Assembly (NCBI GenBank): GCA_020725705.1
Contig: DYEN01000577.1
Coordinates: 1 to 56,423, forward strand
DNA length: 56,423 nt
DNA from: Anaerolinea sp.
GTDB lineage: Bacteria; Chloroflexota; Anaerolineae; Aggregatilineales; Aggregatilineaceae
Direction: 5' to 3'
Both the position numbers and the translations under genes were made by a program. Below, piece after piece: positions 20,070-37,188 of the stretch. Below the pieces are notes generated by a model. The model was not told the DNA's origin. It worked only from the letters and a program-made list of their open reading frames with translations, and did not search any database. Position 1 is the stretch's first letter. Each line of letters opens with the position of its first letter.

Positions 20070-20343
20070 GGGCTGAGACGACCAAACGCCTGGACAGCAC
20101 TCTGACCCGGGTCGGGGTCGGCGTCGCGGCGAACACGCTCCACACGTCAGTGATGGAGCCGGGCACGTGCCGCCTGGGGCCGCGGGAACAGAGCGGCCAG
20201 AGGCCATCATCAACTCACCCAACCGGATCGCCGGGGAAGATGTAAGAGGCGATCCGGAAATGTTACCTGCCTGTGTCAGGCATCGGCAACGCTGTGACCG
20301 TTGGAGCAGATCGCGATTGCCTCTTGCAGCCTCGCCAAACCGT

Positions 20344-20997
20344 CTAGTCGATCAATCCCCGTTGCAGGGCATATCGTATGAGTTCGCTGCGGGAGTTAAG
20401 GTTTAATTTGCGCATGACATTGCCGCGATGAAAGTCAACCGTTTTAGGTGTAATAAACAATGCTTCTGCAACTTGCTGGTAGGTATTGCCGCGCGCCAAC
20501 ATGACCAATACTTCGCGCTCGCGCTCAGTTAACGTGTCCAGCAAGTCAGTCGGTGTCTGGATGTCACGCCGCACGCCGTCCACTAGGACGCCGGTAATCC
20601 TTGGATCAAAGAAAGTGTCGCCCGCAGCAACAGCGCGAATCGCTGAAAGCAATTCATCCCCGTCGGCCCGCTTGAGGACATATCCGGAAGCACCAAGCTT
20701 GAGTGACGGAATGATATATTCCTTATTCTCGTGTTGCGTCAAGATCAAGACTCGAATTTCCGGGAAGGCATCCTTGATGGCCCGCGTTGCTGCCAGTCCA
20801 TCCATGCCCGGCATACCGATATCCATCAGAACGACATCGGGCTGTAGCTCGCGCACCCGTGCCAATGCTTCCTGGCCGTCGCCCGCATCACCGACAACCT
20901 CAAAATCGGGTTGCACGTCGAGCAGGGCGCGAATACCAGCGCGCAAGACGGAGTGATCGTCGACGATCAATATTCGGATTTTTGAGAACACCGGCAT
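20344..20997 (-). CDS. Response regulator, NarL/LuxR (FixJ) family
   Basis: REC domain ([13 protein letters not shown] ... [13 protein letters not shown] ... ILTQH) plus LuxR-type HTH ([43 protein letters not shown]). Start taken at [10 protein letters not shown]. Confidence 0.92.
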
Positions 20998-21054
20998 TGC
21001 TCGTTCAGCCCTCAGAAAGCTTTTGTATGCCAGATCGTACCCCAACCAAGGAAA

Positions 21055-23382
21055 TCAGGGCGAAGTCTCTTCCGGATGGTAAGATCGCACGTCGTGCTCT
21101 ATGGCGAGCGGGATCTCTGCCCGCACGCGGGTGCCGCGGCCCAACTGTGACTCGAGATGAAAGCTCCCAGAGAGCAGATCGGCGCGTTCTTTGATTCCTA
21201 ACAAACCCCAACCGCGCCCTTCTCTTTCACGGATCTCCAGGGCGTTCGCGAGGTCGAACCCTTTGCCGTTGTCGTGGATCTCCAACATGACTCGATCGCT
21301 ATCCGCCCGCATCTTGATCTTGACTTCGCTCGCTTCAGCATATTTGGAGATGTTCGTCAACGCTTCCTGCGCGATTCGAAAGAGCGCGGTTTCGATGTCC
21401 GGCGCGAACCGCACCTTATCATCTCCCTCGATTTCCCATATTACCTTAATACCGAGCTTTTCCAGGCGAGATTCTGCATACCAGCGAATGGCCGGAAGCA
21501 ACCCCAAATCGTCCAGCAGGCTCGGACGCAGATCGTAAATAACCGTCTGCAATTCTCGCACAGCGTCACTGGTGGAGACGCGCAGCCGCTTGAGGATTTC
21601 CCCGGCATCCATAGAAGGATCCGTCAGCGCCAGTTCAGCCGTTTTCAGGCCGAAGATCAGGGCATTAAGGGATTGACCGAACTCATCATGGAGTTCGCGC
21701 GCGATACGCTTCCGCTCCTCCTCTTGTGCGCGGATCGCTTTTGCCAGCAGTTGCGCCCGCAGGCGCTCTTTGTCTTTCAGATCGTTCCACAGCCGGGCAT
21801 TCTCCAGCGCGACACCCAGCTGAGAGCCAATCATCACCATAAGGCGGAAGTTCTCCTCGGTGAAAAATGAAGGGCTATAGGCGGCCACATTCAAGGCACC
21901 GATTACCCGACCACCCTCAATGAGGGGAACGCTGGCATGACAATGCACCGGTTTGCCGCTGCTGCTGTGAGAATGGGACAAGACGCAGTTGTGTCCCGGC
22001 GTTACGATGATCGGGCTTTTCGTGCGAAGCACAAGCCCGCAATCGCACTCAGGAAAGCGCACACTGAGCTGCACAAGGGGTTCGGCAAAGCCGGCTACGG
22101 CGGCCAGATAGGGCGGTGAGTTCTCACGCGCAATGGCGATCCACCCTGCCGGCAGGTCGAGCACTGCCAGCACCTGTTCAAGGGCTTCTTGCAGCATATG
22201 TTCAATGTTGCTGCTGCGTCGGTTCATAATCGCAGATATAGCGTTCAGTGTTGCCAGTTCGCGATTCTGGCGCTGGATCTCGGCTTCTTTTGCCTTGCGT
22301 TCAGTGATATCCCGGGTGAACCAGGCTAATGCACGCTTCCCTTCATATTGAATGATAGTGCCGCTTGTCTCCACAATAACCGCACGGCGATCCCGCGTCA
22401 GGAGCTGCATTTCATGCCTTAGCGCGGTGCTCTTGCCATCCCGGATAGTCTGCCATGCCTCGTACGCGGCGTTTAGGCTGTTGGGATGGATAACCTCTGC
22501 CGCGTTGAGGTTCAGCAGATGCGTGCGCTCGTAACCGGTGAGGCGGCAAAACTCATCGTTAACGAACAAGAAGCTGCCCTCATTAACCGCCTCATCGCAA
22601 ATCAAGGCGATGCCTTCGCCAACCTGCCCTGCAGCCTTGAGCAGCGCACGATACCCTGCCCGCGAGTCTTGAAGCTGGGTAATCGTTCCCTGCAGGTCTA
22701 CCGCCATGGCGTTGAACGCTCGCGCGAGATCGCCGATTTCGTCTCGATTATTGATGGAAATCGTCTGGGTCAAATCTCCGGAGCCGAAACGCTGAACCCC
22801 TTCGGTCAAGCGGGAGAGAGGACGCGTGACGATGCGTGCAAATACAATCGCAGCCACAACGCCAGCCATCATCCCAACCGCTGTCAGGCCGAAAATGATC
22901 CAGGTCAGATCTTGAAGGACATCAGTTATGCCGGTTTGACTGAAGCCAAGATGGAGTTCGATATCGAGTTTGTCGGTCAGACGCCAACCGAAATCCTGAA
23001 TGACGCCTGCTTCGGTTCTCAACAACGTTTGTTGTGTAAGCTGCCCGGCAGGCATAGCGTTTGCGGCCAGCAGGTCCACGGGAAACCCATTAGCAAAGGT
23101 GTGGACGACAACACGTCCCGGAGCGCCAATTGCATAGGCATAGATAATGTTGGGATTAGACCCCTTTAGATATTGGAGAAACTCCTGAACCGCTACCATA
23201 TCGCCTTCTAGCAAGGCGTTGGCGATGGCATTTCCGGATATTTGCACCAGGGCTGAGCCATGAGCATCCAGCTCGCTGCTCAATTTACTGGCAACGACCG
23301 TGTTGATCGCCCCGATTGTCAGCACGCCCAGGCTGATGACAATCAGAGAGGTGAAGATAATGATCTTGGTATGTAGTTTCAT
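21055..23382 (-). CDS. Sensor histidine kinase (TM, periplasmic domain, TM, HAMP, PAS, GAF, HisKA_3, HATPase_c)
   Basis: 775 aa. Two TM helices flank a periplasmic segment of about 135 aa. HAMP (LSRLTEGVQRFGSGDLT...IGDLARAFNAMA). PAS ending in FTRDITERK. A GAF-like block. H-box RIARELHDEFGQSLN (NarX/HisKA_3 type). G-boxes HDNGKGF and GWGLLGIKER. ATGA overlap with the upstream binding-protein gene. Confidence 0.92.
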   Translation of the reverse strand: MKLHTKIIIFTSLIVISLGVLTIGAINTVVASKLSSELDAHGSALVQISGNAIANALLEGDMVAVQEFLQYLKGSNPNIIYAYAIGAPGRVVVHTFANGFPVDLLAANAMPAGQLTQQTLLRTEAGVIQDFGWRLTDKLDIELHLGFSQTGITDVLQDLTWIIFGLTAVGMMAGVVAAIVFARIVTRPLSRLTEGVQRFGSGDLTQTISINNRDEIGDLARAFNAMAVDLQGTITQLQDSRAGYRALLKAAGQVGEGIALICDEAVNEGSFLFVNDEFCRLTGYERTHLLNLNAAEVIHPNSLNAAYEAWQTIRDGKSTALRHEMQLLTRDRRAVIVETSGTIIQYEGKRALAWFTRDITERKAKEAEIQRQNRELATLNAISAIMNRRSSNIEHMLQEALEQVLAVLDLPAGWIAIARENSPPYLAAVAGFAEPLVQLSVRFPECDCGLVLRTKSPIIVTPGHNCVLSHSHSSSGKPVHCHASVPLIEGGRVIGALNVAAYSPSFFTEENFRLMVMIGSQLGVALENARLWNDLKDKERLRAQLLAKAIRAQEEERKRIARELHDEFGQSLNALIFGLKTAELALTDPSMDAGEILKRLRVSTSDAVRELQTVIYDLRPSLLDDLGLLPAIRWYAESRLEKLGIKVIWEIEGDDKVRFAPDIETALFRIAQEALTNISKYAEASEVKIKMRADSDRVMLEIHDNGKGFDLANALEIREREGRGWGLLGIKERADLLSGSFHLESQLGRGTRVRAEIPLAIEHDVRSYHPEETSP

Positions 23383-24374
23383 GGCTGCAGCAGACCATAT
23401 ATCCTGGCCCAGTGGCGCAGGTCATCGTAGTCACTAGCCACGACTAACCCAAAACCATTGGGCATTTCGGTGCGCTCCCAATGATATAGCTCCAACCCAT
23501 TCAGGCGCTTGGGGTTGAAAGCAAGCAATGCCTGCTGCACTGCGTCGGCCACTTCGGCAGGAACATGAGCGCCGGCGATGATTCCGCTAGACGGAAACGG
23601 GTCTGATTGGGCGATGATGCGGACAAGCCCCTGTTCTGCCAGAGTTCTTCCTAAAGTATCCTGCACTGCACCGGCATCGACTCGGCCGCTAATCACCGCG
23701 TTAGAGGTCTCAAAATGCGACCTCGTGAACTCGTGAGACTGCAAATCGCCAAGCTCAATGCCCGCCTGGGACATCATAATTCGGGGAATGAGATATCCCT
23801 GAGTGGAGTTGCTGGCCCCAAAAGCAAAGGTATGGCCTGCCAGATCGCGTAATGATTTCAGGTCGCTGTCAGGTCGGGAGACAATCAGCGATCGATACGA
23901 GCCTTCACCGTTTGAATTCAACCCACAGACCAGCATGGTGGCCGCCGAAACTTCGCGTACCTGAAGGTATGTAAGCGTGCCGGCTATGGCGAAATCTACC
24001 TGTTCCGCCAGGATCTCGCGCACCAGACTTCCAGCCTTGGGGGTAACGTGCAGCCTGAACTTGTAACCCGTTTCATTTTCAAGATATTGGAGCAGCCCGG
24101 AGTAGATGCGTACATCCTCTTTTGGCTCAAGTCGCCGGTCAAAGCCGAAGCTGTAAACCGGTTCAGATTCCACTGTAGCGGGCCAGCGGACTTCCCCTCG
24201 AATCAGGTTGTTCTCTAATGACACATTGACAGGCTCTTTGTCGGTATTCAGGCACGCAGAACCGGCCAGGAGGATGCCAAGGCCGAACATCAGGCCCGCT
24301 GCAACCCGGAGCTTGTTTCCTGGCTGAATACCCGCCGAAATGCTGTACAACCATGAAAACTTTAATGACATCAT
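23379..24374 (-). CDS. PhnD-like (phosphonate/phosphite ABC-type) periplasmic substrate-binding protein; no transporter partner, coupled to the kinase
   Basis: 331 aa. N-terminal signal/anchor ending LLAGSAC. Type-2 PBP core (YSFGFD..., FAIAGTLTYLQ, STQGYLIPR) typical of the PhnD family. No ABC permease or ATPase lies next to it. Its stop overlaps the kinase start. Confidence 0.8.
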   Translation of the reverse strand: MMSLKFSWLYSISAGIQPGNKLRVAAGLMFGLGILLAGSACLNTDKEPVNVSLENNLIRGEVRWPATVESEPVYSFGFDRRLEPKEDVRIYSGLLQYLENETGYKFRLHVTPKAGSLVREILAEQVDFAIAGTLTYLQVREVSAATMLVCGLNSNGEGSYRSLIVSRPDSDLKSLRDLAGHTFAFGASNSTQGYLIPRIMMSQAGIELGDLQSHEFTRSHFETSNAVISGRVDAGAVQDTLGRTLAEQGLVRIIAQSDPFPSSGIIAGAHVPAEVADAVQQALLAFNPKRLNGLELYHWERTEMPNGFGLVVASDYDDLRHWARIYGLLQP

Positions 24375-24873
24375 ATCCCCACAAGGCGCCTACGCCTTCT
24401 AGAGCGTGTTAAGAACTGAACGAGAAACACGCACCGGCCTCGAGTTTTCGTGCAGGGGCGACGCTTGCATTGCGCGCGGCCAACCCATCTCGCGTGTAAC
24501 CCAGGCGGAGCAAGGCGCCCCCTCGCGCGATACCGGGTCTCCGATCCGGTCTGTAAGTGTTCATAACCGTCTTCTAGGACAAGGCACGCGATTTTTGGCG
24601 AGTATGCCACAAGCCATCCTTTCATCAAAACAACTGCGGACAATTCCTAGGAAATTCCCCAGGTACAACCCCGGTTCCTTCCCCAGTTAACCTGACTATC
24701 TCTGCCGCCTACAATCGAAGATGTATCAGTGTGCGTATAGCCCTGTTTCCCCTGCGAGAAACCAAGGCAACAAGGAGTGTGACTTATGTCTGGAGAATCC
24801 CTTGACGCAGGCTTCATGCCATGAGCGTGCCTTCGAGGTATGTGCTGTGGCAAGAACAAAGGAGAAATTAGAC
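24375..24873. promoter_or_regulatory. Divergent control region between the sensor operon and the molybdoenzyme operon
   Basis: 499-bp non-coding gap between divergently oriented genes. It contains a perfect 10-bp palindrome TTCCTAGGAA (24644..24653) and a 12-codon mini-ORF with a strong AAGGAG site (24786..24824). Confidence 0.5.
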
Positions 24874-25785
24874 ATGGCCAAAGATGACGATCTGTTGAGA
24901 GAAGCGCTCGCTGGTGACGAGACCAGCCGCCGTTCCTTTCTGGGCAAGTTTGCAGGCGGGGTATTTGCCGGCCTGGTGGCGCCCGCGCTGATAGGTGAGG
25001 TGCGCGCCGCTCACGCCGCCCCTGACACCCAGGAACAGCCAGACCTTGCGCCGCTTCCTGACCTGCCCGAGGCGATCGAAGGAGAGCACCCGGTTGTGCG
25101 CATGATGGAAGACCTGCGCCGCGCTTTGCAGAAGCCGATGGCCGAGCGTAAGTGGGCGATGGTGATCGATCTGCGCAAGTGCACCGGTTGCAACGGCTGC
25201 AATATCAGCTGTGTAACCGAGAACAAGCTGCCGCCTGGGGTCACGTACCGTCCGGTAATGACCGAAACCCAGGGAACCTATCCGCACGTGTCGCGCCGGT
25301 TTGTTCCACGCCCCTGCCTGCAGTGTGAAGATCCCCCCTGTGTGCCTGTCTGCCCGGTCAGGGCAACGTACAAACGCGCGGACGGGATCACAGTCATTGA
25401 CTACGAACGGTGCATTGGCTGCCGGTATTGCATGACAGCCTGCCCCTACTCGGCCCGGTACTTCGATTTCGGTCGGTTCTACGGGGACAATGAAGGCGGC
25501 GAGCGCCAGCCCTATGAGCTGCTACCCACACCGGAATATCGCAAGAACTACGACCGGGCCGAAGGCGGCTCCCCGATTGGAAACGTGCGCAAGTGTCATT
25601 TCTGTATTCATCGCATCGAGCACGGTGAACTGCCAGCCTGCGTGCTTAGCTGCATGGGCCGGGCAACCTACTTTGGCGATATGAACGATCCTGCCAGTTT
25701 GGTCTCGGAACTTATCGCTCAACCCAATGTCATGCGACTCAAGGAAGAGTTGGGAACCGATCCCAAAGTCTTCTATCTTGTCTAG
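24874..25785 (+). CDS. Tat-exported 4x[4Fe-4S] ferredoxin-type electron-transfer subunit (NrfC/TtrB/PsrB-like)
   Basis: Twin-arginine motif [12 protein letters not shown]. Four Cys clusters: [60 protein letters not shown] at 24874 preceded by AAAGGAGAA. Confidence 0.9.
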
Positions 25786-25796
25786 GAGATACAACC

Positions 25797-28628
25797 ATGA
25801 CCCAACAACAGGGACCGACCTTAACGCGGCGTAACTTCCTCAAAGTGGGCGGGTTGACGACCGTCAGCGGCCTGGCAGCGTACAGCGGACTTGGCACCGG
25901 ATTCCGGCGGATCAGCGCCCAGGAAGCCCAGAACCGCCTGCAGAGCACGATCGTCTATACCGCCTGTGTTATGTGCCCGGCTGAATGTGCCCTGGCCGTG
26001 CGGGTGGAAAACGGTGTCGCCTCAGCTATCTATGGGAACAATCATGCACCCCTGAACTCTGGCGTGCTGTGCGCAAAAGGGGCGTCCGGTCTCCAGATGG
26101 CCTACAACGCGAATCGGGTCAAATACCCCATGATTCGCGTCGGCGAGCGTGGCGAAGGCAAATTCCGTCGCGCTTCGTGGGACGAGGCACTGGATTACAT
26201 CGCCGACAAGTTGATCCAGATTAAGCAGGAAAGCGGGCCAGAAGCGGTCATCATGGACGCCGGTGACGTCACCGACCGTGACCCGTACTACTATCTCTTC
26301 CGGGCCTTTGGCACGCCGCACACTGTGGAACACGGCTCCATCTGCGACACACCGCGCCGCCATGGCCCCAAGCTGATGTTTGGCGGCAAGCGTGTTGAAC
26401 CAGACATCATGCGTCCGGTGCTGGTGCGCCAGCCTGACGGCAGCTTGAAAAACGACTACCGCTATCGCACACGGCTAATCGTCTACGCCGGTTGGAACCC
26501 ATTCACGGCTACCCGCATCGTCTATGAGTCACGCGGGACAGTAGAGGCGAAACTGGCCGGCGCTCGCATCGTGGTCATCGACCCCGCTTTGTCCAACACG
26601 GCGACCAAAGCCGACCAGTGGATCCCGATCCGCCCCGGTACTGACCCGGACCTGTTTGCGGCCGTGCTGCGCTACATTCTGGAAAATCATCGCGACGACA
26701 ATCCTTTCCGGAAATACATCGATTGGTCCTTCCTGGAGTACAGCCAGGGATGGGAAGAATTCGAGGCGGACTTTAAGAGCTGGTGGAACAAGGAAGACCC
26801 CATCAACGGCCTGAACTACTTCACCCTGGAATGGGCGGAACAACGCACCGGCATTGACGCGCAGACAATCGCCGAACTGGCGCATACCTTCGGTATCACC
26901 AAACCCGCGGCCTGGGTGTGGGGAATGAATGGCATCGGCCACCACTACAACGGGTATGTCGCTTCGATCATCGGCACGGCCCTGAATGTTATAACCGGCA
27001 ATATGGAAATCCCCGGTGGCGCGATCGACACCGAAATTGTCAAGAGCAGCAAGGGCGGCAACGCCGGTGGTGGTCAGTTTAACCAGCGCGAAGTCACACG
27101 CCGTATCAACGGCCGCACCGTTACCGGCAAGCAGGAACAACTGCATATGGACTGGTACGGCGATTGGCCCGCGAGCTGGGACGATGTGGTGGGTGATTAT
27201 CCGCGCCGTTTTAACGAAGGGGTTACCCTGCGTTATGGGCCGTTCCGCGGGCACCAGTATCCCATCCGTGCCTTCTTCCTGCGCACCGGCAACCCGGTGA
27301 TCACTGCCAGCAACACCGAAACCTGGGTCGAGGCGTTAACCCGGAAGAACGGCGACAACTACAACGTGGACCTGGTTGTCTACATCGACACTCCCTTCCT
27401 GGAGACCGGTATGTACGCAGATGTTGTGCTGCCGGAATCCAGCTACCTGGAGCGAATGAGCCTCTCCGACATCTACCCCAGCCACCCGCTCATCTACCTG
27501 CGCGACTTCGTGATTGACAAGATGTACGAATCCAAGTCGCAGTATGACATCATGATCGCTCTGGCTAAGAAACTGCAGGAGAAGGGTGATCCGGACATCA
27601 ATCCCGCAGATTTCTGGGAGAAATATCCCACAGAAGAGGACTTCTGGAATGAGGCTCTAAAGGTCTCGCCCGGACGGGCCAACTGCGGACAGCCGCTGCC
27701 TTATCCTGACTATCCGGTCAATTACAAACTGCTCGGCACACCCGAATCCCTTGAAGCAGGCCGGGTCGAAGTTGACGACGAAAAGAAGGAAATCCGAGGC
27801 GAACCGGTGACGGTGCAATGGCTGCGCGATCACTATGGTGTCGCTGTGTGGCCGATGAGCTGGTTTCGCTTCCATGAAGGCGGCGTTCTGCAAACAGACA
27901 GCAAGAAGGTCGAGTTTGTTTGGGACTTCGAAGTGGAAGCGGACGATGCGGTGCAGCGCAAGGGTCGGTATGCCAAGTACAACAAGCTCATTGAGGAAGC
28001 CAACGAGACCCCGCCCAGCCTGCGCAGGCTCGGTTGGGAGAAATACCCCTCGAGCTTCTATTGGTTCGAGACGCTCTGGAACCCCTATACCAACCCGGAC
28101 TATGCCCAGTACAAAGACGAGTATCCGTTCCTGCTGGTCTCCGGACGTGTCCATCACGCCATGTCTGGCACACAGATGGTGGACTGGCTGGGTCGCCTTC
28201 CCACCGAAGACCTGTGGATGCCCCTGAACGACGAGCGCGTGGTGGATGAGATCATTGTCGGGCCGGATGGGCCTGCACCCTCTGGTCGCCGTGTGCGCGT
28301 GGCAAAGGGAACGTGGTGCATCGGCGTGATCCAGATGAATGCAGCCGATGGTGCCCGGCTTGGGCTTGAAACAGGCGACCTGGTCGAGCTTTCCACACCG
28401 CTGGGGCACACCACGCGCGGGAAAGTCTATCTGGTAGAGACCATACGGCCTGGCGTGCTACGCGTTCCGTTTGGTGGCGGTGGGCGCTTCAGCCCGGGTT
28501 TGGGCAAGACGTATGACTTCCGCGACGAGTCGCCCAACCACAATGCCCTCGTGGATCCTGAATGCCTGTCACCAATCATGGGACAACCAGCCTATTGCGA
28601 CATGATCGTCAAGGTGACCAAGGTATGA
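25797..28628 (+). CDS. Tat-exported molybdopterin (bis-MGD) oxidoreductase catalytic subunit, DMSO-reductase superfamily (Psr/Phs/Ttr/Arr clade); substrate unknown
   Basis: 943 aa. Tat motif LTRRNFLKVGG. N-terminal FS0 cluster motif C-x2-C-x3-C-x27-C (CVMCPAEC...LCAKG). Probable Mo-ligand Cys in EHGSICDTPRRHG. Large MGD-binding domains. Confidence 0.9.
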   Translation: MTQQQGPTLTRRNFLKVGGLTTVSGLAAYSGLGTGFRRISAQEAQNRLQSTIVYTACVMCPAECALAVRVENGVASAIYGNNHAPLNSGVLCAKGASGLQMAYNANRVKYPMIRVGERGEGKFRRASWDEALDYIADKLIQIKQESGPEAVIMDAGDVTDRDPYYYLFRAFGTPHTVEHGSICDTPRRHGPKLMFGGKRVEPDIMRPVLVRQPDGSLKNDYRYRTRLIVYAGWNPFTATRIVYESRGTVEAKLAGARIVVIDPALSNTATKADQWIPIRPGTDPDLFAAVLRYILENHRDDNPFRKYIDWSFLEYSQGWEEFEADFKSWWNKEDPINGLNYFTLEWAEQRTGIDAQTIAELAHTFGITKPAAWVWGMNGIGHHYNGYVASIIGTALNVITGNMEIPGGAIDTEIVKSSKGGNAGGGQFNQREVTRRINGRTVTGKQEQLHMDWYGDWPASWDDVVGDYPRRFNEGVTLRYGPFRGHQYPIRAFFLRTGNPVITASNTETWVEALTRKNGDNYNVDLVVYIDTPFLETGMYADVVLPESSYLERMSLSDIYPSHPLIYLRDFVIDKMYESKSQYDIMIALAKKLQEKGDPDINPADFWEKYPTEEDFWNEALKVSPGRANCGQPLPYPDYPVNYKLLGTPESLEAGRVEVDDEKKEIRGEPVTVQWLRDHYGVAVWPMSWFRFHEGGVLQTDSKKVEFVWDFEVEADDAVQRKGRYAKYNKLIEEANETPPSLRRLGWEKYPSSFYWFETLWNPYTNPDYAQYKDEYPFLLVSGRVHHAMSGTQMVDWLGRLPTEDLWMPLNDERVVDEIIVGPDGPAPSGRRVRVAKGTWCIGVIQMNAADGARLGLETGDLVELSTPLGHTTRGKVYLVETIRPGVLRVPFGGGGRFSPGLGKTYDFRDESPNHNALVDPECLSPIMGQPAYCDMIVKVTKV

Positions 28629-29269
28629 CGGTGACAGAACAAACACTGGCTGAGCGAGCAGGGCTTTACAGCCTGCTGCACGCCTTCTACACCTATCCTT
28701 TGACAGAGTCTTTGCTTGCTGACGTAGCTGGCCTGTCTCTGCCGGCTGAGTCGCCGTTGTTCGACGGCCTGGTGCAAATGCAAACCGGTCAGCTAAGCGC
28801 TGAGACGCTGAACGTGGAGATGACTCGATTGCTGGAAGGCCCTGGCCGCACACCGGCTCCACCTTACGCGTCCTACTATCTCAACGACAGGCAGTTGATG
28901 GGGCCGCCCGCTACGATGGCACGTCAGACTTACCTGGAATGGCAAATCTACCCGGAAGGCGACCAGTACATACCGGATGATCATCTGGCTCTGGAACTGG
29001 GCTTTATGGCCTATTTGGCCCAACTGGCCCTGTCATCAGAGCCGGACCGGAACAAAGCACTGGTGGCGAGCTACCGATTTCTGGTCGACCAGATTGTACC
29101 CTGGTTGCCTCACTTCAGCAGGGCGTTGACCCAAGCAACCGAGGAACCATTCTTTGTCGGGTTGGTACGCTTCACGCAAGCAGCCATTCAGTCGGACCTT
29201 GAGTGGCTGGAATCGTACCTGCGTGCAGATCCGCGCCAGGCGCCATCCGTCCAAACGCCAGGCGTTTAG
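28625..29269 (+). CDS. TorD/DmsD-family redox-enzyme maturation chaperone
   Basis: 214 aa. LYSLLHAFYTYPL ... PPYASYYL ... PDDHLALELGFMAYL is typical of TorD-like chaperones. ATGA overlap with the catalytic-subunit stop. Confidence 0.8.
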   Translation: MTVTEQTLAERAGLYSLLHAFYTYPLTESLLADVAGLSLPAESPLFDGLVQMQTGQLSAETLNVEMTRLLEGPGRTPAPPYASYYLNDRQLMGPPATMARQTYLEWQIYPEGDQYIPDDHLALELGFMAYLAQLALSSEPDRNKALVASYRFLVDQIVPWLPHFSRALTQATEEPFFVGLVRFTQAAIQSDLEWLESYLRADPRQAPSVQTPGV

Positions 29270-29279
29270 GAGGAAGAAA

Positions 29280-30473
29280 ATGGCTCAAACAACTGCAATA
29301 CGACCCGCAGCACCTGAGCGTCGCTTCAGTTTTCAACTGACAGATCTATTCTGGCTGTTGGGAATTGTCCTGCTGGCTGCCGGTGCATGGGGGATGTGGC
29401 AACGGCTGAGCGAAGGACTTGCCCCTACAGCCCTCAACAGCTATGTGCCTTGGGGTCTGTGGGTTGGCTTCTACGACTATCTGGTGTGGTTGGAAGTCGG
29501 CAGCCTGCTGGTCTTCACCACCGTTGTGTATCTGGTAGGCTACAAGCCTCTGGCCGCACTCAAGCCACAGATCTACTTCACGGGTTTCGTGGCTCTGTTC
29601 ATGGCACTGCTTCTTGTCCTGCTCGACTTAGGGCGGCCGACGCGCTTCTGGCACGTCTATCTGTATCCGGACTTTGGCTCCATGATCACCTGGATGGTCT
29701 GGCTGCATACCGCCTATTTGGTCATCCTGTTGGCCAAACTTCTGCTGGTGACCAACAGAGTGTCGGTTGGGCCAGAACGGAGAGACTGGCTTCTACAAAA
29801 GCTAGCCTATCTGAGTCTGCCTATGGGCCTGGCTTTGATCATCGTCAGCGGCTCGATCTTCGGCGTGGTCACCGCGCGGCCCCTGTGGAACACCTCATCA
29901 CTTCCCTTGATGTTCCTGCTCTCGTCCCTGGCTGCAGGAAGCGCGCTCATCACACTCTTGGCCGTGTTGTTCTGGCCGAATCGGCAAACAGATGAGTATC
30001 GTCAGGTGATGAAGCTGCTTGCCCGGATGACAGCCTGGCTGCTGCTGGCCGGAGCCTTTGCGGCAGGTATCATCGGGTTGACGTTCCTGTATCAGGGCAG
30101 TCCGGCGCGAGCAGAAGCGGTGAATCTGGTTCTGACAGGGCCTTACTGGTGGAGCTTCTGGATCGTCCACTTGTTAATCGGTGTGCTGATACCCCTGCTG
30201 GTCCTCTTCACCCAGGCTCACAGGCCAGCGCTAGTCGGCTTTGCCAGCCTGCTGGCTGTAGTCACGTTTGTGGCAGTGACCCTCAACATCGTGATCCCGG
30301 CACTGGCTACGCCGGAGCTGGAAGGTCTGGTGCTGGCCTATGTGGATCCGAAGATGAGCTTTGATTACGTACCCAATCTGACAGAGTGGATGTTAATTTC
30401 GTTCATTTTTGGGTTGGGTGGTGTTGTGTATGGTCTGGGTCTTCGCTGGCTACCGGTAAAACCGGCGGCCTAG
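29280..30473 (+). CDS. NrfD/PsrC-family polytopic quinol-interacting membrane anchor
   Basis: 397 aa with about 8-10 hydrophobic helices. NrfD-like N-terminal pattern (WGLWVGFYDYLVWLEVGS). AGGAGG lies upstream of the ATG at 29280. Last gene of the operon. Confidence 0.8.
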   Translation: MAQTTAIRPAAPERRFSFQLTDLFWLLGIVLLAAGAWGMWQRLSEGLAPTALNSYVPWGLWVGFYDYLVWLEVGSLLVFTTVVYLVGYKPLAALKPQIYFTGFVALFMALLLVLLDLGRPTRFWHVYLYPDFGSMITWMVWLHTAYLVILLAKLLLVTNRVSVGPERRDWLLQKLAYLSLPMGLALIIVSGSIFGVVTARPLWNTSSLPLMFLLSSLAAGSALITLLAVLFWPNRQTDEYRQVMKLLARMTAWLLLAGAFAAGIIGLTFLYQGSPARAEAVNLVLTGPYWWSFWIVHLLIGVLIPLLVLFTQAHRPALVGFASLLAVVTFVAVTLNIVIPALATPELEGLVLAYVDPKMSFDYVPNLTEWMLISFIFGLGGVVYGLGLRWLPVKPAA

Positions 30474-30534
30474 GACCCCGGGGCCATCGCCGCAATAGGC
30501 CTATGTAGGCCCGACAGATTGAAGTTGGCGACCC

Positions 30535-30576
30535 GGGCCGGCTGGCTATCAGGCCTACCCTGTAACCAGCCGGCCC
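30535..30576 (+). terminator. Stem-loop downstream of the NrfD-like gene (possible terminator, no U-tract)
   Basis: 11-bp perfect stem, GGGCCGGCTGG (30535..30545) and CCAGCCGGCCC (30566..30576), with a 20-nt loop. Confidence 0.35.
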
Positions 30577-31049
30577 ACCGGCTTACGCAGCTATTTTCGG
30601 GAACACTTCCGTGACAGCCCCGATTGCACGCTTAGCAATCGGGCGCAAGCGAGCAATACTGCTGGTTGGGCAAACGTCTGTATGAATGAGCCTGCAGGCG
30701 AGCCTCTGTTGCCTCAAGATGCAAGCACAACTGAAAAGCCGCCGAACAAGAGCACCCGAAGCCGAGAACAAACCCCGCTACCCAAGCATCGTCCCTGCGA
30801 GACCATCTAACACCGCCGCTTCCCATCAAGGGTATAAGACGCTCTAGATTCGCCACCTTTATACGAGCAGCGATGTAGAGTCGTTCCTGAACAGCTTTAG
30901 GAGTTATGCTATGCTGTGTGACTTTATTGTCCACACGCGGAGGATCGCCTACGCCCTGTGCATCCCAAGGAATGACTCCCCTACACCTTATGTCACTCGA
31001 CGCGCCAGCATTTGACTGGCCATAATGTTCGATGGCCGGAGAGGTCTTC

Positions 31050-31895
31050 TCAGCCCTTGATCCCGGTCATCGAGATGCCCTCGATGAAGTAGCGCTGGAG
31101 CATATAGAAGACGACAATCGGCGGCATGGCAGCGAGCACCGCACCGGCCATCGCCTGACCGTACGCCTGCGCACCTTGCGCCTGGCCGGGCCGCAGGCTC
31201 ATGAACTGCGCGATCCCGACCGGTAGCGTGCGCGAAGCGTCGGTGCGGGTGGCGATCAGGGGCCAGAAGAAGCTGTTCCAGGTGGAAAGAAACGTGACGA
31301 TGGCGACCGCCGTCAGTGCGGGCTTGGCCAGCGGCAGCACCACCGACCACCAGATGCGCAGCGTACTCGCGCCGTCCACACGGGCGGCGTCTTCCAGCTC
31401 ATAGGGGATGTTCAGGAAGAACTGCCGCATCAAAAAGACGCCGGTCACATTGGCCCCCACCGGCAGGATCAGCGCCAGGTAGGTGTCCGTCAGGTTCAAC
31501 TCGGAGAACATTAGAAACAGCGGCACAACCGTGATCTGCATCGGCACGAACAGCATCGACAGGATTACGGCGAAGATCACACCCCGCCCGGCGAACCGCA
31601 TCCGCGCCAGCGCGTACCCGGCCAGCGAATCGAGTAGCAGCACCAGCAGTGTTGCGCCAGTGGAGACGATCAGGCTGTTGAGCGTCCAGCGCAGGATATT
31701 GAAGCGGTCAAAGACGCGCTGGTAGTTGTCCAGCGTGAAGGTGCGTGGAATCCAGCGCACATCGATCGTTGCGATCTCGGTTTCCGGCTTAAACGAGGTC
31801 GAGAGCATCCAAGCGATCGGCGCCAGCATCACCACGACCAGCGCCACCAGCAGCGCGTACCAGATCAGTTTGCCGAGCAGCCGCATCGAGATCAT
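31050..31895 (-). CDS. Carbohydrate ABC transporter permease (MalG/BPD_transp_1 type)
   Basis: 281 aa, 6 TM. EAA loop [28 protein letters not shown]. 4-nt overlap with the upstream permease gene. Confidence 0.9.
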
Positions 31896-32848
31896 GACGC
31901 CACCCCGCGAATGCCTCGCCGGTACAGGTACGCCTGCATCAGTGCGAACACGATCAGAATTCCGAACAGCAGCGTCGCCACCGCCGCGCCGTAGCCCATG
32001 CGCAGGTTCTGGAAGGCGGTGGTGTAGATGTACTGCACCAGCGTCAGGGTCGAGGTGCCCGGCCCGCCGGAAGTCATGACATACACCTGGTCAAAAACCT
32101 GAAACGAGTTGATCAGCGTCAGCATCAAGACAACGAACGTCGTCGGAGCGAGCAGCGGCAGAGTAATGTGCCGCAGCAGGTGTAGGGGGCCGGCGCCGTC
32201 GATGCGCGCCGCCTCGTACAGCTCGGCAGGGATGTCTTGCAGGCCTGCCAAAAACAGGACCATGCCGTAGCCCACCGTCCACCAAACCGTGGTGAGAATG
32301 ATGCCATAGAGCGCCACATCCTGGCTGACCAGCCACGGCAGCCCGCCGATGCCCAGTTTGTTTAGATAGGCGTTCAGCAGCCCGAAGTCTTTTTCAAGAA
32401 TCCACGTCCACAGCACACCAACCACAGTAGACATCAGGACATAGGGCGTGAACGCGGCGACCCGGCCCAGCGCGCGGCCTTTGTGCGGCTGGTTGAGGAA
32501 GATCGCCAGCGCCAGACTGAGCACCACTAGTAGGGGAACCGTCAGACCGGTGAAGAAAGCCGTGTTTTTGAGCGCCGCTTCCAGGCGTGGGTCGATGCGC
32601 ATCAGCTCGTAATTGGCGGTGCCGACCCACTCCGGCGAGCCGACAATCGACCACCGGGTAAACGACATCCCCAGCCCAAAGAGCGACGGCCCCAGCCGGA
32701 ACGTCAGAAAGGTCAACAGGTAGGGCAGCAGAAAGAGGTAGGGCGTCCACCGGGAATACAGGTGGCCCGTGCCGCTCGCGGTGCTGGCGACGGCACTCGT
32801 ACGGGGACGTGGCAGAACGCGCATAACAGCTCCTGCGATCACCTGCAA
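31892..32848 (-). CDS. Carbohydrate ABC transporter permease (MalF type)
   Basis: EAA loop [26 protein letters not shown]; polytopic. The start may be the internal Met at 32824. Confidence 0.9.
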
Positions 32849-32923
32849 TCAATGATGAAGCGGGATGGAGTGGCCAGGCGAACAGGCCACTCCATCACCC
32901 GCCGAATTGCGGCTCGTTTCGAG

Positions 32924-34231
32924 TTACTGCATCTGCAAGATGAACGTGATCTCGTCGCAGGCTGTCTGCGCGGCGGTGACCGGGTCCGCCTGCTCCAGCA
33001 TGATGCTCTGCGCCATCACCATCATGGGCGTGGGCGCGTTGGACGCGAAGATCTCGTTATAGGCGGGGATGCCGGGCAGGAAGACCTCGTACGGCATCAT
33101 TTCGATGAACGCCTCGCGCCCGTACATCGCGCGGAACTCCTCGGACTCCATCACCTCACGGTAGGCCGGAAGCTGGCCGGCGCGGGCCCAGGCGGTCGAG
33201 TTGGCGGCCAGCCATTCGATGAACTGGAGTGCCTCGTCGCGCTTCTCCGGATCGGCAACCTTTGACGGCAGCGTCAGGTTGTGCCCGCTGCCCCACACGG
33301 CGTAGTTCTCCTCGAACACCTGCGGGTACTTGGCCGACGCCCAGCGGAACCCGGTTTCGGCCTCGGCAGCCTCGAAGGCCGGCATCTGCCACGGACCGTC
33401 GATCAGCATGGCGGTGCGGCCGGAGAGGAAGTCGCGGGCATAGTCGGTTTGCCCCTGTGGGGCGATATGGTGCGTGTAGACCAGGTCTTGCAGGAACTGC
33501 CACGCTTGTGCGGCTTTGTCAATGTCCATCGCGCACTCGGTCCCGTCCTCGGAGATTAGCTCGCCGCCGAGCTGGCGATAGAGCGCCCACCACTGGAAGA
33601 AGGCGTGATGGTTGGAGTGCATGTTGATCGCGTACTGGACGACATTATCAGGGTCAAAACCCTCGTCGTCGGGGTGGTTGCCGTTGGCATCCACCGTGAG
33701 CTGCTTGCCGATCTCGATCAGCTCTGCACCGGTCGTGGGCGGGTTCTCGATCCCGGCCTGCTCGAACAGATCCAGGTTATAGTACAGACCGTGCATGTGC
33801 AGGTCGAGCGGGATGGCGTAGAGTGTGCCCTCGTAGATGTTCGGGTTCCACGCGCTTTCCAGGTAGTTCTCAGGCTTGAGGATCTCGGATCCGGCAATCA
33901 GGTCATCCAGGGGCGTCAGCAGGTCCAGCACGATGAACTGCGCCAGCTCCTGCGGGTGCATCGCCAGGATGTCGGGCGCTTCGTTCGAGGCCGAGGCCAC
34001 GACGAAGGCGTCAAACAGCGGTGACCACTGCTGGCGGGTGAGGGTAATCTGAATGTTAGGATGTTCGGAGTTCCATTGCTGGACAAGCTGGTCCATGATA
34101 TCACCGTCCGGACCGGTCCAGCCGCCCCAGAATTCCAGGGTGACAACGTCGCCCTGTGCGCTGGCCGCCGCGGGGAGTAGCAGCGCCAGCAGCACCAGCA
34201 TCACACCGAAAGGACGTCCGATTCTCTTCAT
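32924..34231 (-). CDS. Extracellular solute-binding protein (family 1, sugar-type)
   Basis: 435 aa. Signal peptide [27 protein letters not shown]. Typical SBP_bac_1 composition ([10 protein letters not shown]..., DGPWQ). Lies upstream of the two permease genes. Confidence 0.88.
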
Positions 34232-34387
34232 CGCAGTTCGCTCCTCAAATCACTCTTCGTTGAGATGGGCCAACTTCGGGCTTTATCAAGCGATAAACGG
34301 CGGCGTGCGCTCCTCCTTTCTGCGCAAAACTTTCCTAAGAGCGGTTATGAGCTTCAACCCGTGCCACGCGGTGAAGCCCCTCGAACC

Positions 34388-34503
34388 CCCTCACCCTCTG
34401 CCTCTCTCGCTCTGCGACTTCGTTGCGGAGAGCGGAAAACGCCGCGTCGCTCAAGCCCCTCTCCCGAGGCGAGGCGCACAGGGAGAGAGGTTTCGGGTGA
34501 GGG
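34388..34503. repeat. GC-rich palindromic intergenic (REP/MITE-like) element, copy B
   Basis: Terminal inverted repeat CCCTCACCC (34388..34396) and GGGTGAGGG (34495..34503). Nested inverted repeats CTCTCTC/GAGAGAG and CCCCTCTCCC/GGGAGAGAGG. Same GGGTGAGGGCC end as copy A. Confidence 0.55.
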
Positions 34504-34515
34504 CCAACTCCAGCT

Positions 34516-35421
34516 TCAGGCAAGACGCAGGTCAAGCACCTCAAGTGCCTGCACCTGCGCCCACTTGCGGCGGACGACGGTTTCAGGCGCAGGCAGCAGC
34601 GGAGCGCGCACCGTCCCGACCGGCAGGCCGCGCACGTCGAGCATCGCCTTGAACAACGACAGGTCACGCCCGTCCTCGAGGATCTCGCGCAGCGCGTTAA
34701 CCTGCCGCTGCAGCGTTCGCGCCCGTACCAGGTCGCCGGACACCGCCGCGTGATAGAGGGCGGTGATCAGCTCTGGGGCGTAGTTAGCGTTGCCGGACAC
34801 GCAAGCATCGATGCCCAGCGCCAGCGCCGCCAAGATATCGCCGTCGTTGCCGCTGGCGGTGTTAAAGGCGCCGTCGTGCAGCGTCATGCAGCGCAGCAGG
34901 TTCTCGAGATGCCCGCTGCTGTCTTTCATGCCGGTGACGTGCGGATAGGTTTCCGCCAGACGCACCACCAGCCCGGCGTCGATCGTGTTGCCGGTCACAC
35001 CGGGGTTGTTGTAGAGATAGATCGGAAAGTCTGGCACCGCCTCGCAGACCTGGGCGAAGTGCCGGAACAGTGCCTCATCCGGGAAGTGGAAGTAGTAGGG
35101 CGTGATCAGCGCCGCTGCCGACGCGCCGCAGCTTTGCGCGTGACGCGTCAGCTCAACCGCCTCGCGCGTCGTGATCGCGCCGGTGTGAATGATGACCGGG
35201 ATGCGCCCGTCCGCCGCCCGGACCACCGTCTCGGCCAGCGCGCGGCGCTCTTCTGGCGAGAGCAATGGCCCCTCGCCGGTCGTCCCGCCGGGGAACAGGC
35301 CGTGCACCCCGCGCTCGATCAGGAACTCAACCAGCCGCCCGATCGCGGCATGGTCGAGTGCGCCGTGGCGGTCAAACGGCGTCAACAGCGGGACGATGAC
35401 GCCCCTGATACGCAAGCTCAC
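34516..35421 (-). CDS. Dihydrodipicolinate synthase/N-acetylneuraminate lyase family (class I aldolase)
   Basis: 301 aa. GVIVPLLTPF, GLFPGGTTGEGPLLSPEER and YLYNNPGVTG are typical of the DHDPS/NAL family. Confidence 0.88.
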   Translation of the reverse strand: MSLRIRGVIVPLLTPFDRHGALDHAAIGRLVEFLIERGVHGLFPGGTTGEGPLLSPEERRALAETVVRAADGRIPVIIHTGAITTREAVELTRHAQSCGASAAALITPYYFHFPDEALFRHFAQVCEAVPDFPIYLYNNPGVTGNTIDAGLVVRLAETYPHVTGMKDSSGHLENLLRCMTLHDGAFNTASGNDGDILAALALGIDACVSGNANYAPELITALYHAAVSGDLVRARTLQRQVNALREILEDGRDLSLFKAMLDVRGLPVGTVRAPLLPAPETVVRRKWAQVQALEVLDLRLA

Positions 35422-36370: not shown

Positions 36371-36375
36371 CGTCG

Positions 36376-37188
36376 TTAATCCGCTGCGGCCTGGCGGCGC
36401 TTCGACAGGCGCGGTGCGTCCACAACCCGCGCCGGCGTGGCGGGCACATAGCCCATCCGCCGTGAAATTTCCTGCGCGGTGGCGACCACCTGTGGCGCGA
36501 GCGCGTCCCGGCGCCGCCCGATCAGCTCGCGATCCGCGCCGGAGACGCTGCACGCCCCAATGACGTGCCCCTGCCCGTCCAGCACCGCTGCCCCCAGGCA
36601 GAACGTACGCACCTCGTGCTCCTGGTTGTCGATGGCGTAACCGCGCTGCCGTGTCTGCTCTAAGTCGGCACGCAGCACGTCGGGATCGGTCAGGGTATGC
36701 GGCGTGAAGGCCGGAAGCCCTGCGCGCGTGATGATTTGCTCGACCTCTTCCGGCGGCAACGCGGCAAGGATCGACTTGCCTACCGCCGTGCAGTGCAGCG
36801 GAGCGCGGTCGCCCACCGCCGTGCGTGCCAGCAGCCGCCGCGAGGATTCGACCGCGTAGATGTACAGCACCGCGTCGCCGTCCCGGACAGTCAGATAAAC
36901 CGACTCGCGACACAGATCGGCCAGCTCGCGCACCAGCGGCGCGGCGCGGTCGCGCAGCTCCACATTGACACGCACCCCCTGCGTCAGCGCGATAATCGCC
37001 GTTCCCAGTGCATAGGCGTCGCCCTCCACCTTCTCAATGAATCCTTCGGAGATCAGCGTCTTGAGAATGTTATGTGCGGTACTCTTGGGGATGCCCAGGC
37101 GGGCGCTGATCTCACCCAGCGTCAGGCGCGGCTCGCCGCTGCTGAACAACTTCATGATCTGAACAGCTTTGATGATCGATTGAATCAT
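36376..37188 (-). CDS. IclR-family transcriptional regulator
   Basis: N-terminal w[27 protein letters not shown] plus a C-terminal IclR effector domain. Start taken at [15 protein letters not shown]. Confidence 0.9.

Follow-up and report, generated by a model that had tools for sequence, protein, structure and literature searches.

Antimony is a priority pollutant whose mobility is controlled by microbial reduction, and some bacteria respire antimonate, its toxic oxyanion. To our knowledge, AnrA is the only dedicated respiratory antimonate enzyme proposed so far; it has been studied in two isolates, and its clade has been characterized only by transcriptomics, proteomics, and activity staining. 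We know of no knockout, purified-enzyme kinetics, or structure. Kambara and colleagues, in 2024, reportedly named the cluster of Geobacter sp. strain SVR anrXSRBAD and identified AnrA, which we take to be WP_173201954.1, in the antimonate-reductase activity band of that strain. Searches of the full-text literature found no mention of ACL19266, OEH84960, or BHU72 locus tags, and the supplements of papers that use anrA gave no reference accession.

The window analyzed here is a stretch of 56,423 nucleotides from Anaerolinea sp. (Chloroflexota; contig DYEN01000577.1). From comparisons of sequence and gene order, we consider it probable that it carries a complete anr-type set, anrR-S-X divergent from anrB-A-D-C, likely to encode a menaquinol:antimonate oxidoreductase. 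The window and the SVR cluster have in common the core order X, S, R, then B, A, D; in both, the A subunit has a Tat signal and the EHG[AS]ICDTPRR Mo-ligand motif, and the X proteins are orthologous at 43% identity. In SVR, tat genes, Moco genes, and one for an ArsP permease come after X-S-R-B-A-D, and the cluster has no NrfD gene, whereas the window has a C subunit of 397 aa with about 10 predicted helices, as counted by hydropathy. The SVR B subunit is 221 aa long and lacks a signal, while that of the window has 303 aa and a Tat signal. SVR uses a sigma-54 NtrC regulator and a HisKA kinase, in contrast to the LuxR-type regulator and HAMP-PAS-GAF-HisKA_3 kinase of the window; at the position of the first FS0 ligand, SVR has Asp where the window has Cys; and XSR is co-directional in SVR but divergent in the window.

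Like the window, the putative AnrA cluster of Desulfuribacillus stibiiarsenatis MLFW-2, the subject of a 2019 report by Abin and Hollibaugh, combines a B-A-D core with X-S-R and a LuxR-type regulator, and its R and X proteins are each 48% identical to their window counterparts. Its A protein, OEH84960.1, may be the published locus BHU72_07145. However, its genes run B-A-D-(362-aa polyferredoxin)-X-S-R and are preceded by one for a small protein with a di-haem motif, it has no NrfD, and its B subunit lacks a Tat signal. In Desulfitobacterium hafniense DCB-2, Dhaf_1206-1209 include an A subunit 59% identical to that of the window, an NrfD anchor, and a chaperone, and the X-S-R architecture is identical. 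The order there is B-C-A-D rather than B-A-D-C, the C subunit (305 aa, 8 helices) is only 28% identical to window C, and B is without a signal. The D. hafniense genes lie about 18 genes from a canonical arrABC and are followed by arsC, arsR, and acr3; the window lacks such an island, with no ars or acr3 genes found near the cluster.

ArrAB of Shewanella sp. ANA-3 (6CZ7) shares with the window a Cys ligand to Mo, with His at Cys-4 and a basic residue at Cys+5, as well as FS0, a four-cluster B subunit, and, in some organisms, XSR-type regulation (ArrX). However, ArrA is only about 19-25% identical to window A, which is some 130 residues longer with several insertions and has DAGDVTD in place of the arsenate-binding RGRY motif. 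PsrABC of Thermus thermophilus (2VPW) has the same A-B-NrfD architecture, with a periplasmic Mo subunit and a Cys ligand, and menaquinol oxidation by the NrfD subunit would be a further common feature. PsrA, however, is 19% identical to window A, in which the stretch separating the Molybdopterin and Molydop_binding domains is about 130 residues longer; PsrC has 8 helices; and the system has neither a dedicated chaperone gene nor an XSR module.

Gene content of the locus

Table 1. Features of the anr-type locus, in window coordinates
Feature	Coordinates	Strand	Basis
R: response regulator, receiver + LuxR/GerE HTH	20344..21045	-	PF00072, 107 bits; PF00196, 76 bits
S: membrane sensor histidine kinase, HAMP-PAS-GAF-HisKA_3-HATPase	21055..23382	-	Pfam matches
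X: periplasmic binding protein, PhnD/PtxB/ArrX/AioX superfamily	23379..24374	-	PF12974, 182 bits
Divergent intergenic control region, X/B	24375..24873	.	499 nt
B: electron-transfer subunit, four [4Fe-4S] clusters, own Tat signal	24874..25785	+	PF13247
A: Tat-exported bis-MGD catalytic subunit, 943 aa	25797..28628	+	PF04879, PF00384, PF01568
D: TorD/NarJ-family maturation chaperone	28625..29269	+	PF02613, 77 bits
C: NrfD-family integral membrane quinol-interacting anchor	29280..30473	+	PF03916, 101 bits

A sequence-only reading of this DNA had described a unit of four genes, B, A, chaperone, and anchor, and the four ORFs are all intact, uninterrupted, and on the plus strand. The Tat signals that it placed on A and B, the C-x2-C-x3-C-x27-C motif, and the Cys ligand in HGSICDTPRR were each found, and the Pfam matches bear out its TorD-like chaperone, NrfD anchor, and NrfC-like B subunit. 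What it overlooked is the X-S-R module at 20344-24374, which is transcribed divergently from B-A-D-C and co-occurs with B-A-D across phyla.

The ATG of B is preceded by GGAG 9 nt upstream. The protein begins with SRRSFLGKF, a hydrophobic stretch, and AHA-AP, within an N-terminal extension of about 95 aa, and its 16 Cys residues are arranged as four ferredoxin motifs; the nearest curated models are DsrO, TtrB, and ArrB, with every score below cutoff. The most likely start of D is the ATG at 28625, rather than 28562. Read directly from the sequence, this ATG overlaps the TGA of A as ATGA, and D is translationally coupled to A through this overlap. For C, the most likely start is the ATG at 29280, 10 nt past the stop codon of D, and not the TTG at 29154; the curated models that fit it best, DsrP and QrcD, both score under cutoff.

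Within the divergent module, the start codon of S overlaps the stop codon of X by 4 nt. X matches PhnD/PtxB (1.7e-19), ArrX (8e-11), and AioX (1e-7) in the PDB and shares 43-48% identity with its counterparts in Geobacter SVR, D. stibiiarsenatis, and D. hafniense; it is presumed to be the ligand sensor for S. It also has a weak match, 77 bits against a cutoff of 250, to a model named "putative selenate ABC substrate-binding protein." Over its full length, S shares 38% identity with the equivalently placed D. hafniense kinase. R is 54% identical to the regulator adjoining Dhaf_1208, and its alignments, that with the D. stibiiarsenatis regulator included, begin at residue 20; its true start is likely the ATG at 20997.

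In the X/B intergenic region, a single sigma-70-like match (24687-24715) did not rise above chance, and a promoter and terminator scan gave counts no higher than in shuffled sequence. An Rfam scan of the 5' region matched no family, the Moco riboswitch included. No tRNA genes were found at the boundaries of the low-GC island, where the sole bracketing repeat is a 16-nt inverted pair, about what chance would produce.

Clade and active site of the catalytic subunit

Aligned over its full length, window A shares 55% identity with WP_173201954.1 of Geobacter sp. SVR and 58% with OEH84960.1, the single family member found in the antimonate respirer D. stibiiarsenatis MLFW-2; between the latter two proteins, identity is only 63%. 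In a neighbor-joining tree whose references were the reference-like neighbors found within the retrieved family loci, the three proteins fell into one clade, with members sharing at least 50% identity and a bootstrap of 200/200. The sequence-only reading saw an operon that it could not match to any it could name, but the locus has the anrXSRBAD neighborhood, and its catalytic subunit falls robustly inside a characterized clade, an outcome that the reading itself had given as a refutation.

Among 1.84 billion library representatives, a single 50%-identity representative, P0173 (1220 bits), stands for the entire family, and its cluster also includes the Geobacter SVR protein. Gene fragments aside, the next match is a B-A fusion at 790 bits, and later full-length proteins reach at most 392 bits. 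Geobacter SVR was not named among the matches of the deltaproteobacterial query and surfaced by cluster look-up.

The earlier view that the subunit stands apart from PhsA, TtrA, and ArrA holds. Its highest-scoring curated model is PhsA, at 247 bits against the NF012032 cutoff of 694; it scores 89 bits, in four fragments, against the TtrA cutoff of 1750 (NF011567), and 167 bits, over the N-terminal 400 residues only, against the ArrA cutoff of 1600 (NF041714), a model on which the true Arr/Arx-like neighbors in two family loci (L046 and L066) reach 1051 and 1083 bits. The subunit shares 25-28% identity with Phs-, Ttr-, and Arr-like sequences (28% for Phs-like, 26% for Ttr-like), and Phs/Psr-like sequences from two further loci, L056 and L072, were placed outside the family. 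Compared through the T. thermophilus chain only, PsrA matches the family profile with 189 bits and is its top PDB sequence match.

The Tat motif of window A is TRRNFLK, its FS0 cysteines are C57, C60, C64, and C92, and Cys183, in EHGSICDTPRR, is the Mo ligand. Across 144 family sequences, the motifs [DC]-x2-C-x3-C-x27-C, EHG[AS][IL]CD[TV]PRR, and DxGDVTD are invariant, and window A has each of them; R161, R187, and R188 are invariant as well, and mean column identity in the family is 66-73%. An AF2 model of A built with 144 sequences has a pLDDT of 91.8, and the solved fold closest to it is ArrA 6CZ7 (E 1e-42; TM 0.65/0.75). The Cys, the His at Cys-4, and the basic residue at Cys+5 are conserved between ArrA and A. 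In the family profile, however, ArrA R165/Y166 of the RGRY motif align with D157/V158, inside the invariant acidic D154-x-G-D157-V-T-D160. This acidic stretch is a plausible fit for the hydroxylated Sb(OH)6- over a tetrahedral oxyanion.

Conserved neighborhood and distribution of the family

The window has the anr layout, with B directly 5' of A, a TorD-like D directly 3', and X, S, and R adjacent. Among the 83 family loci, A is flanked by B and D in all but one (82/83), and X, S, and R accompany the enzyme genes in at least 50, across phyla. Genes for As(III)/Sb(III) export or detoxification, Acr3, ArsC, or ArsP, occur within 10 kb in 19 of the 83. Some members lie beside Arr/Arx-like operons (L046 and L066), others lie inside arsenic islands, and family genomes often carry a true Arr as well; in Chloroflexi-type loci, even an ArsR was present in only 2 of about 22.

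At least three architectures occur in the family, BAD, BCAD, and BADC. The window cluster is a Chloroflexi variant, in which the NrfD anchor has 10 helices, B carries a Tat signal, and the regulator is of the LuxR type. A Tat motif on B was seen only in Chloroflexi-type loci; only in this branch do A and B each have one. The large A subunit and the dedicated chaperone, taken in the earlier reading as oddities of this operon, characterize either the family as a whole or its Chloroflexi branch.

The family spans more than 10 phyla and also archaea (Sulfolobales and Desulfurococcaceae), and it has spread by horizontal transfer; a plasmid collection held no A homologue at E < 1e-50. Members occur in habitats with no obvious antimony, among them oxygen-minimum-zone Rhodospirillales, a mouse-gut member of Eggerthellaceae, and an anammox reactor, and some lineages may use another substrate. 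In the family flanks, there were no recurrent selenium- or tellurium-related genes.

A family this tight, at 50% identity or above, can serve metagenomic surveys as a cleanly defined marker. The anrA HMM searches now in use report matches in genera such as Bosea and Sphingomonas, which are absent from the organisms named in our family homology searches, and those searches appear loose. The analysis also amends the long-standing "PhsABC" label on Dhaf_1206-1209.

Proposed function and alternatives

We infer the substrate from orthology at 55-58% identity; the reaction direction, the use of menaquinol as donor, and the ligand of X are likewise inferences. The sequence-only guess of a respiratory reductase for an oxyanion was a good one. 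In the mechanism that we propose, X, periplasmic and probably lipid-anchored, would report antimony or a related metalloid species to S, which would phosphorylate the LuxR-type R, and R would activate B-A-D-C from the 499-nt divergent region. D would hold A back in the cytoplasm as an apoprotein until it has received its molybdenum bis-MGD cofactor and FS0 cluster. A and B would then be exported folded via Tat, each with its own signal in this lineage, and dock onto C on the external side of the membrane. C would oxidize menaquinol, and the electrons would cross B by way of its four [4Fe-4S] clusters and then pass via FS0 of A to the Cys183-ligated Mo, where antimonate, Sb(OH)6-, would be reduced to Sb(III). 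Thermophilic and groundwater Chloroflexi are thus candidates for antimonate respiration by a quinol-linked version of the enzyme. Several observations count against this reading: the family members from habitats with no obvious antimony, the lack of ars or acr3 genes near the window cluster, the differing regulator types, and the NrfD anchor that is missing from SVR.

It is conceivable, although unlikely, that the Chloroflexi-type cluster is functionally distinct from the anchor-less Geobacter Anr and that the substrate of the family is perhaps wider than antimony. The B-A-D-C order, the Tat signal on B, the 10-helix DsrP/QrcD-like NrfD, and the Cys ligand of FS0 may set it apart; it could be a quinone-coupled, possibly energy-conserving complex, and in Chloroflexi of hot springs and groundwater it could even act as an Sb(III)/As(III):quinone oxidase. 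A wider substrate range may be expected given the members from oxygen-minimum zones, gut, bioreactor, Sulfolobales, and Desulfurococcaceae. More unlikely still is that the enzyme, while of the same family, is here an arsenate reductase or runs in reverse as an Sb(III)/As(III):quinone oxidoreductase (compare Arx with Arr). This would suit the ArrA-like fold, with its shared Cys, His, and basic Cys+5 residue, the kinship of X with the arsenate and arsenite sensors ArrX and AioX, and the members found next to Arr/Arx-like operons or in arsenic islands; moreover, NrfD anchors function in both directions in known complexes. Yet the invariant acidic motif takes the place of arsenate-binding RGRY, the ArrA model score is far below its cutoff, and the frequent co-presence of a true Arr in family genomes argues for a different job. 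In SVR, Kambara et al. reportedly found in 2024 that expression is responsive to Sb(III) but not As(III).

An oxyanion of another kind (e.g., selenate, selenite, tellurate, or vanadate), with the antimony activity of the studied homologues as a side activity, seems quite improbable. The wide ecology of the family, which includes habitats not known for antimony, would accommodate it, as would the faint resemblance of X to the putative selenate-binding model, and the studied AnrA proteins are not known to have genetic or kinetic proof. However, selenium and tellurium genes do not recur in the flanks, the neighbors that do recur are As/Sb(III) efflux genes, and the extreme conservation of the family argues for one shared substrate. 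The least probable of the alternatives is a thiosulfate or polysulfide reductase of the Phs/Psr type, the annotation of Dhaf_1206-1209 and the JGI name of several homologues. Tetrathionate and thiosulfate sensors likewise use PhnD-like domains, PhsA is the top curated model for A, and PsrA is the top structural-database sequence match. Dhaf_1206-1209 were proposed as phsABC plus a chaperone, and stimulation of growth by thiosulfate was noted, but the assignment was based on a BLAST E-value of 2e-47 only (Kim et al. 2012, PMC3306737). The PhsA score, moreover, is far under cutoff, Phs-like sequences stand apart with full bootstrap support, and sulfur chemistry would leave the Acr3/ArsC/ArsP link and the two antimonate respirers unexplained.

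Another antimony-transforming enzyme of the DMSO reductase family was considered as the identity because one of the homologues came from Symbiobacteriaceae. NaoABC of that family is a nitrate-dependent Sb(III) oxidase that includes a Rieske subunit and groups with NapA and AioA (PMC11521347). The window cluster is not NaoABC, as there is no Rieske ORF in the 20-31 kb region and A shares 23% identity with a Nap-like sequence. Members of the A family also occur in Symbiobacteriaceae MAGs (L025 and L026).

Gene content of the window

The sequence-only reading had described four plus-strand genes as an unassigned molybdoenzyme operon: a ferredoxin subunit (B), a bis-MGD catalytic subunit (A), a TorD-like chaperone (D) and an NrfD-type anchor (C). 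A six-frame ORF list bore out four intact, same-strand ORFs at the proposed coordinates, and the Tat motifs claimed for B and A, the Cys motifs, and the TorD-like and NrfD genes were seen in the ORFs or by Pfam; only the start codons of D and C needed small corrections. A GGAG sequence lies 9 nt ahead of the B start, the D start and the A stop codon (TGA) share the sequence ATGA, and C likely starts 10 nt past D. The N terminus of B has a hydrophobic stretch followed by AHA/AP, a standard cleavable Tat signal, and an extension then precedes four Cys motifs (16 Cys in total). A carries the TRRNFLK Tat motif, Cys57, Cys60, Cys64, and Cys92 in a C-x2-C-x3-C-x27-C arrangement, and EHGSICDTPRR.

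Overlooked in that reading were three opposite-strand genes directly upstream of B, which encode a binding protein (X), a sensor kinase (S), and a response regulator (R); the S start overlaps the X end by 4 nt. G+C content is 0.54-0.60 exactly across R-S-X-B-A-D-C (20000-31000), compared with 0.62-0.68 in the flanks, which suggests that the seven genes were acquired together by horizontal transfer. A 16-nt inverted repeat (15/16 complementary) brackets this island; chance alone would give roughly one pair of this kind in 11.8 kb. A search of the island boundaries turned up no tRNA gene. Elsewhere the contig has the look of normal chromosomal DNA, with P450, ABC transporter, heliorhodopsin, and sugar-uptake genes. 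The minus-strand genes beyond C may form a sialic-acid-type utilization cluster.

Features of the window
Feature	Coordinates	Strand	Description
Heliorhodopsin gene	16371-17153	+	PF18761, 347 bits, full-length; ~3 kb upstream of R
Inverted repeat, arm 1	20068-20083
R	20344-21045	-	LuxR-type response regulator
S	21055-23382	-	HAMP-PAS-GAF-HisKA_3 kinase
X	23379-24374	-	PhnD-like periplasmic binding protein
B	24874-25785	+	Fer4_11 (Pfam); ferredoxin-type, own Tat signal
A	25797-28628	+	943 aa; three DMSO-reductase-family domains (Pfam)
D	start ATG 28625 (most plausible)	+	TorD/NarJ-family
C	likely start ATG 29280	+	NrfD protein; ~10 hydrophobic helices
Inverted repeat, arm 2	31043-31058
Sugar-uptake region	31050-36913	-	Sugar ABC permeases and binding protein, DHDPS-family lyase, BNR-repeat sialidase-like protein

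Relationship of A to AnrA

The claim that A lies outside the named enzymes held: it scored below the cutoff of every curated equivalog model, including PhsA (247 bits against 694), ArrA (167 against 1600), and TtrA (89 against 1750). Its top PDB sequence matches, PsrA, Shewanella FdhA, and ArrA, had near-equal scores and partial coverage only. A first homology search returned 120 proteins of ~940 aa with 55-98% identity, from Chloroflexota, Rokubacteria, Aquificales, Sulfuricella, Neomoorella, Desulfitobacterium, Symbiobacteriaceae, and others. When one genome per species was scanned, relatives appeared in 112 species; the 80 of these that were listed span bacteria (Chloroflexota, Bacillota, Nitrospirota, Desulfobacterota, Burkholderiales, Rhodospirillales, and Actinomycetota) and archaea (Sulfolobales and Desulfurococcaceae). 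The closest among those listed was from an uncultured Anaerolineae MAG (89% identity). Three archaeal loci, from Sulfolobales, Desulfurococcaceae, and unclassified MAGs (L042, L064, and L076), carry the order B-C-A-D with 57-59% identity to A, which implies transfer between domains.

Among 1.84 billion 50%-identity protein representatives, the whole family collapsed into one full-length entry, P0173 (1220 bits). Gene fragments aside, the next match was P0233 (1096 aa, 790 bits, 45%), and full-length proteins beyond it reached at most 392 bits. P0233 is the family's closest outside relative: a B-type ferredoxin fused to a catalytic subunit, with the altered motif NHGSICDPNRKWG and no Tat signal, and hence presumably cytoplasmic. 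In a neighbor-joining tree (728 columns; Arr/Arx-, Phs-, Ttr-, and Nap-like outgroups from the fetched loci, typed by NCBIfam), both the family and the Chloroflexi subclade holding A were recovered in 200/200 bootstraps. Identity between A and the outgroups was 23-28%. Within the family, column identity averaged 73% for 12 diverse members and 66% for 144. On these comparisons, A is a member of a strongly conserved and discrete family.

For Geobacter sp. SVR, a 2024 study is reported to have identified WP_173201954.1 in the activity band for Sb(V) reductase and to have named the genes anrXSRBAD. Exactly this accession, a 948-aa SVR protein, was found in the 90%-identity cluster of P0173. The order in SVR is X-S-R-B-A-D, followed by tatA, tatC, tatA, moeA, moaA, a MOSC gene, dsbD, and an ArsP permease. 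In Desulfuribacillus stibiiarsenatis MLFW-2, the family member is OEH84960.1 (942 aa), set in the order small two-CxxCH protein, B-A-D, polyferredoxin, X-S-R. End to end, A shares 55% identity with the SVR protein and 58% with that of MLFW-2, and the latter two share 63%; A is therefore only slightly beyond the divergence between two experimentally implicated enzymes. By sequence, then, the family of A is the AnrA family, the proposed antimonate reductase catalytic subunits. After this comparison the operon can no longer be viewed as an orphan: with its R-S-X / B-A-D-C layout, it represents a new architecture of the anr cluster for probable antimonate respiration, in an uncultured Anaerolineae-like Chloroflexi bacterium. 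While a specialist in metalloid respiration will find this unsurprising, the result sharpens the family definition, widens the known host range, corrects an old annotation, and nominates a quinol-linked form of the enzyme for biochemical study.

Conservation and variation of the gene neighborhood

The ORFs of 83 loci were searched with window, D. hafniense, and SVR proteins as seeds. B and D each adjoin A in 82 of the 83; X, S, and R are all present in at least 50, a lower bound since many contigs are short; an NrfD gene lies near A in 38; and Acr3, LMW-ArsC, or ArsP occurs within 10 kb in 19. Three architectures track phylogeny: B-A-D-C in Chloroflexi, with X-S-R co-directional or divergent; B-C-A-D in Bacillota and some archaea; and anchor-less B-A-D in Nitrospirota, Desulfobacterota, Burkholderiales, Geobacter, and Desulfuribacillus. 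Unsupervised clustering of the other flanking ORFs brought out nothing further but generic ABC ATPases, an FmdE/zinc-finger protein, ArsP, TauE, and YnfA; the FmdE-domain protein, whose zinc finger is of the DksA/TraR type, lies downstream of the cluster in eight loci (e.g., L011:15066-15704). The tatA-tatC-tatA, moeA-moaA-MOSC, and ArsP genes that directly follow the anr genes in SVR (L085:13719-17725) have no counterparts near the window cluster. The D. stibiiarsenatis cluster has a secreted protein of 112 aa with a pair of CxxCH motifs ahead of B (L083:9045-9383) and a 362-aa multi-cluster ferredoxin after D (L083:13570-14658); the two may provide an electron-entry route in anchor-less clusters.

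The Tat signal of B and its ~95-residue N-terminal extension are confined to Chloroflexi-type loci; at the others, B has 190-230 residues and is presumably exported along with A. The window C (397 aa, ~10 helices; best models DsrP and QrcD) differs from that of D. hafniense (305 aa, 8 helices, 28% identical), and each anchor may have been acquired independently. At the first FS0 [4Fe-4S] ligand position (residue 57), the window protein and 102 family members have Cys and 172 have Asp, a split roughly by subclade, with Cys in the Chloroflexi type and Asp in most B-A-D and B-C-A-D types, including SVR and MLFW-2. Regulators are of the LuxR/HisKA_3 type in the window, D. hafniense, and MLFW-2, whereas SVR has sigma-54 NtrC/HisKA proteins. 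Since X is nevertheless conserved among the compared clusters (43-48% identity), the same ligand of X appears to feed different output modules. In the PDB, X matched PhnD/PtxB (1.7e-19), ArrX, which senses arsenate (8e-11), and AioX, which senses arsenite (1e-7); it thus belongs to the superfamily of known metalloid sensors and is a close copy of neither.

Active site and candidate substrates

An AlphaFold model of A built with 144 family sequences (pLDDT 91.8, pTM 0.91) best matched ArrA among solved structures (E 1e-42, TM 0.65/0.75), followed by PsrA. The family profile was aligned by HMMER to ArrA (6CZ7); the numbering of the published ArrA active-site residues agrees with the printed 6CZ7 sequence. 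ArrA Cys193, His189, and Lys198 correspond to Cys183, His179, and Arg188 of A, while Arg165 and Tyr166 of the RGRY motif are replaced by Asp157 and Val158, inside an invariant acidic stretch (D154-A-G-D157-V-T-D160-R161). The larger size of A is due to a 16-residue insertion after the Cys loop and ~70-130 extra residues between the Molybdopterin and Molydop_binding domains. Antimonate in water is octahedral, fully hydroxylated Sb(OH)6-, and a carboxylate-lined, H-bond-accepting pocket would be a reasonable adaptation to it. In the proposed mechanism, a metalloid species sensed through X, S, and R would induce B-A-D-C; after export, the A-B pair would dock on C, which would pass menaquinol electrons to the Mo center of A, where antimonate would be reduced.

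We consider antimonate reduction the probable function. This grading takes into account that the functional link runs through the reported identification of AnrA and that AnrA is not known to have genetic or kinetic proof; family members in habitats with no obvious antimony and the rarity of ars genes at Chloroflexi loci also weigh against it. An arsenic-directed or reverse (oxidase) role for the same family seems unlikely, and reduction of another oxyanion quite improbable; thiosulfate or polysulfide is the least probable substrate.

The genome paper for D. hafniense, whose family member is Dhaf_1208, labeled Dhaf_1206-1209 "putative phsABC with an additional chaperone" from a BLAST E value of 2e-47 and placed arsC (Dhaf_1210), an arsenite pump (Dhaf_1212), and canonical arrABC (Dhaf_1226-1228) nearby (PMC3306737). 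The gene row ArsR, methyltransferase, X, S, R, B, C, A, D, ArsC, ArsR, Acr3 pointed to metalloids. The thiosulfate reductase label has a weak BLAST basis and conflicts with clade membership and the arsenic-island context (PMC3306737 compared with locus L001). At two further loci, L046 (657-3257) and L066 (12538-15090), an Arr/Arx-like A-B-D operon, scoring 1051 and 1083 bits with the ArrA model (below the cutoff of 1600), lies directly beside the anr genes, an arrangement consistent with different tasks for the two enzymes within a single metalloid island. L066 also carries two copies of the anr-type B-A-D set.
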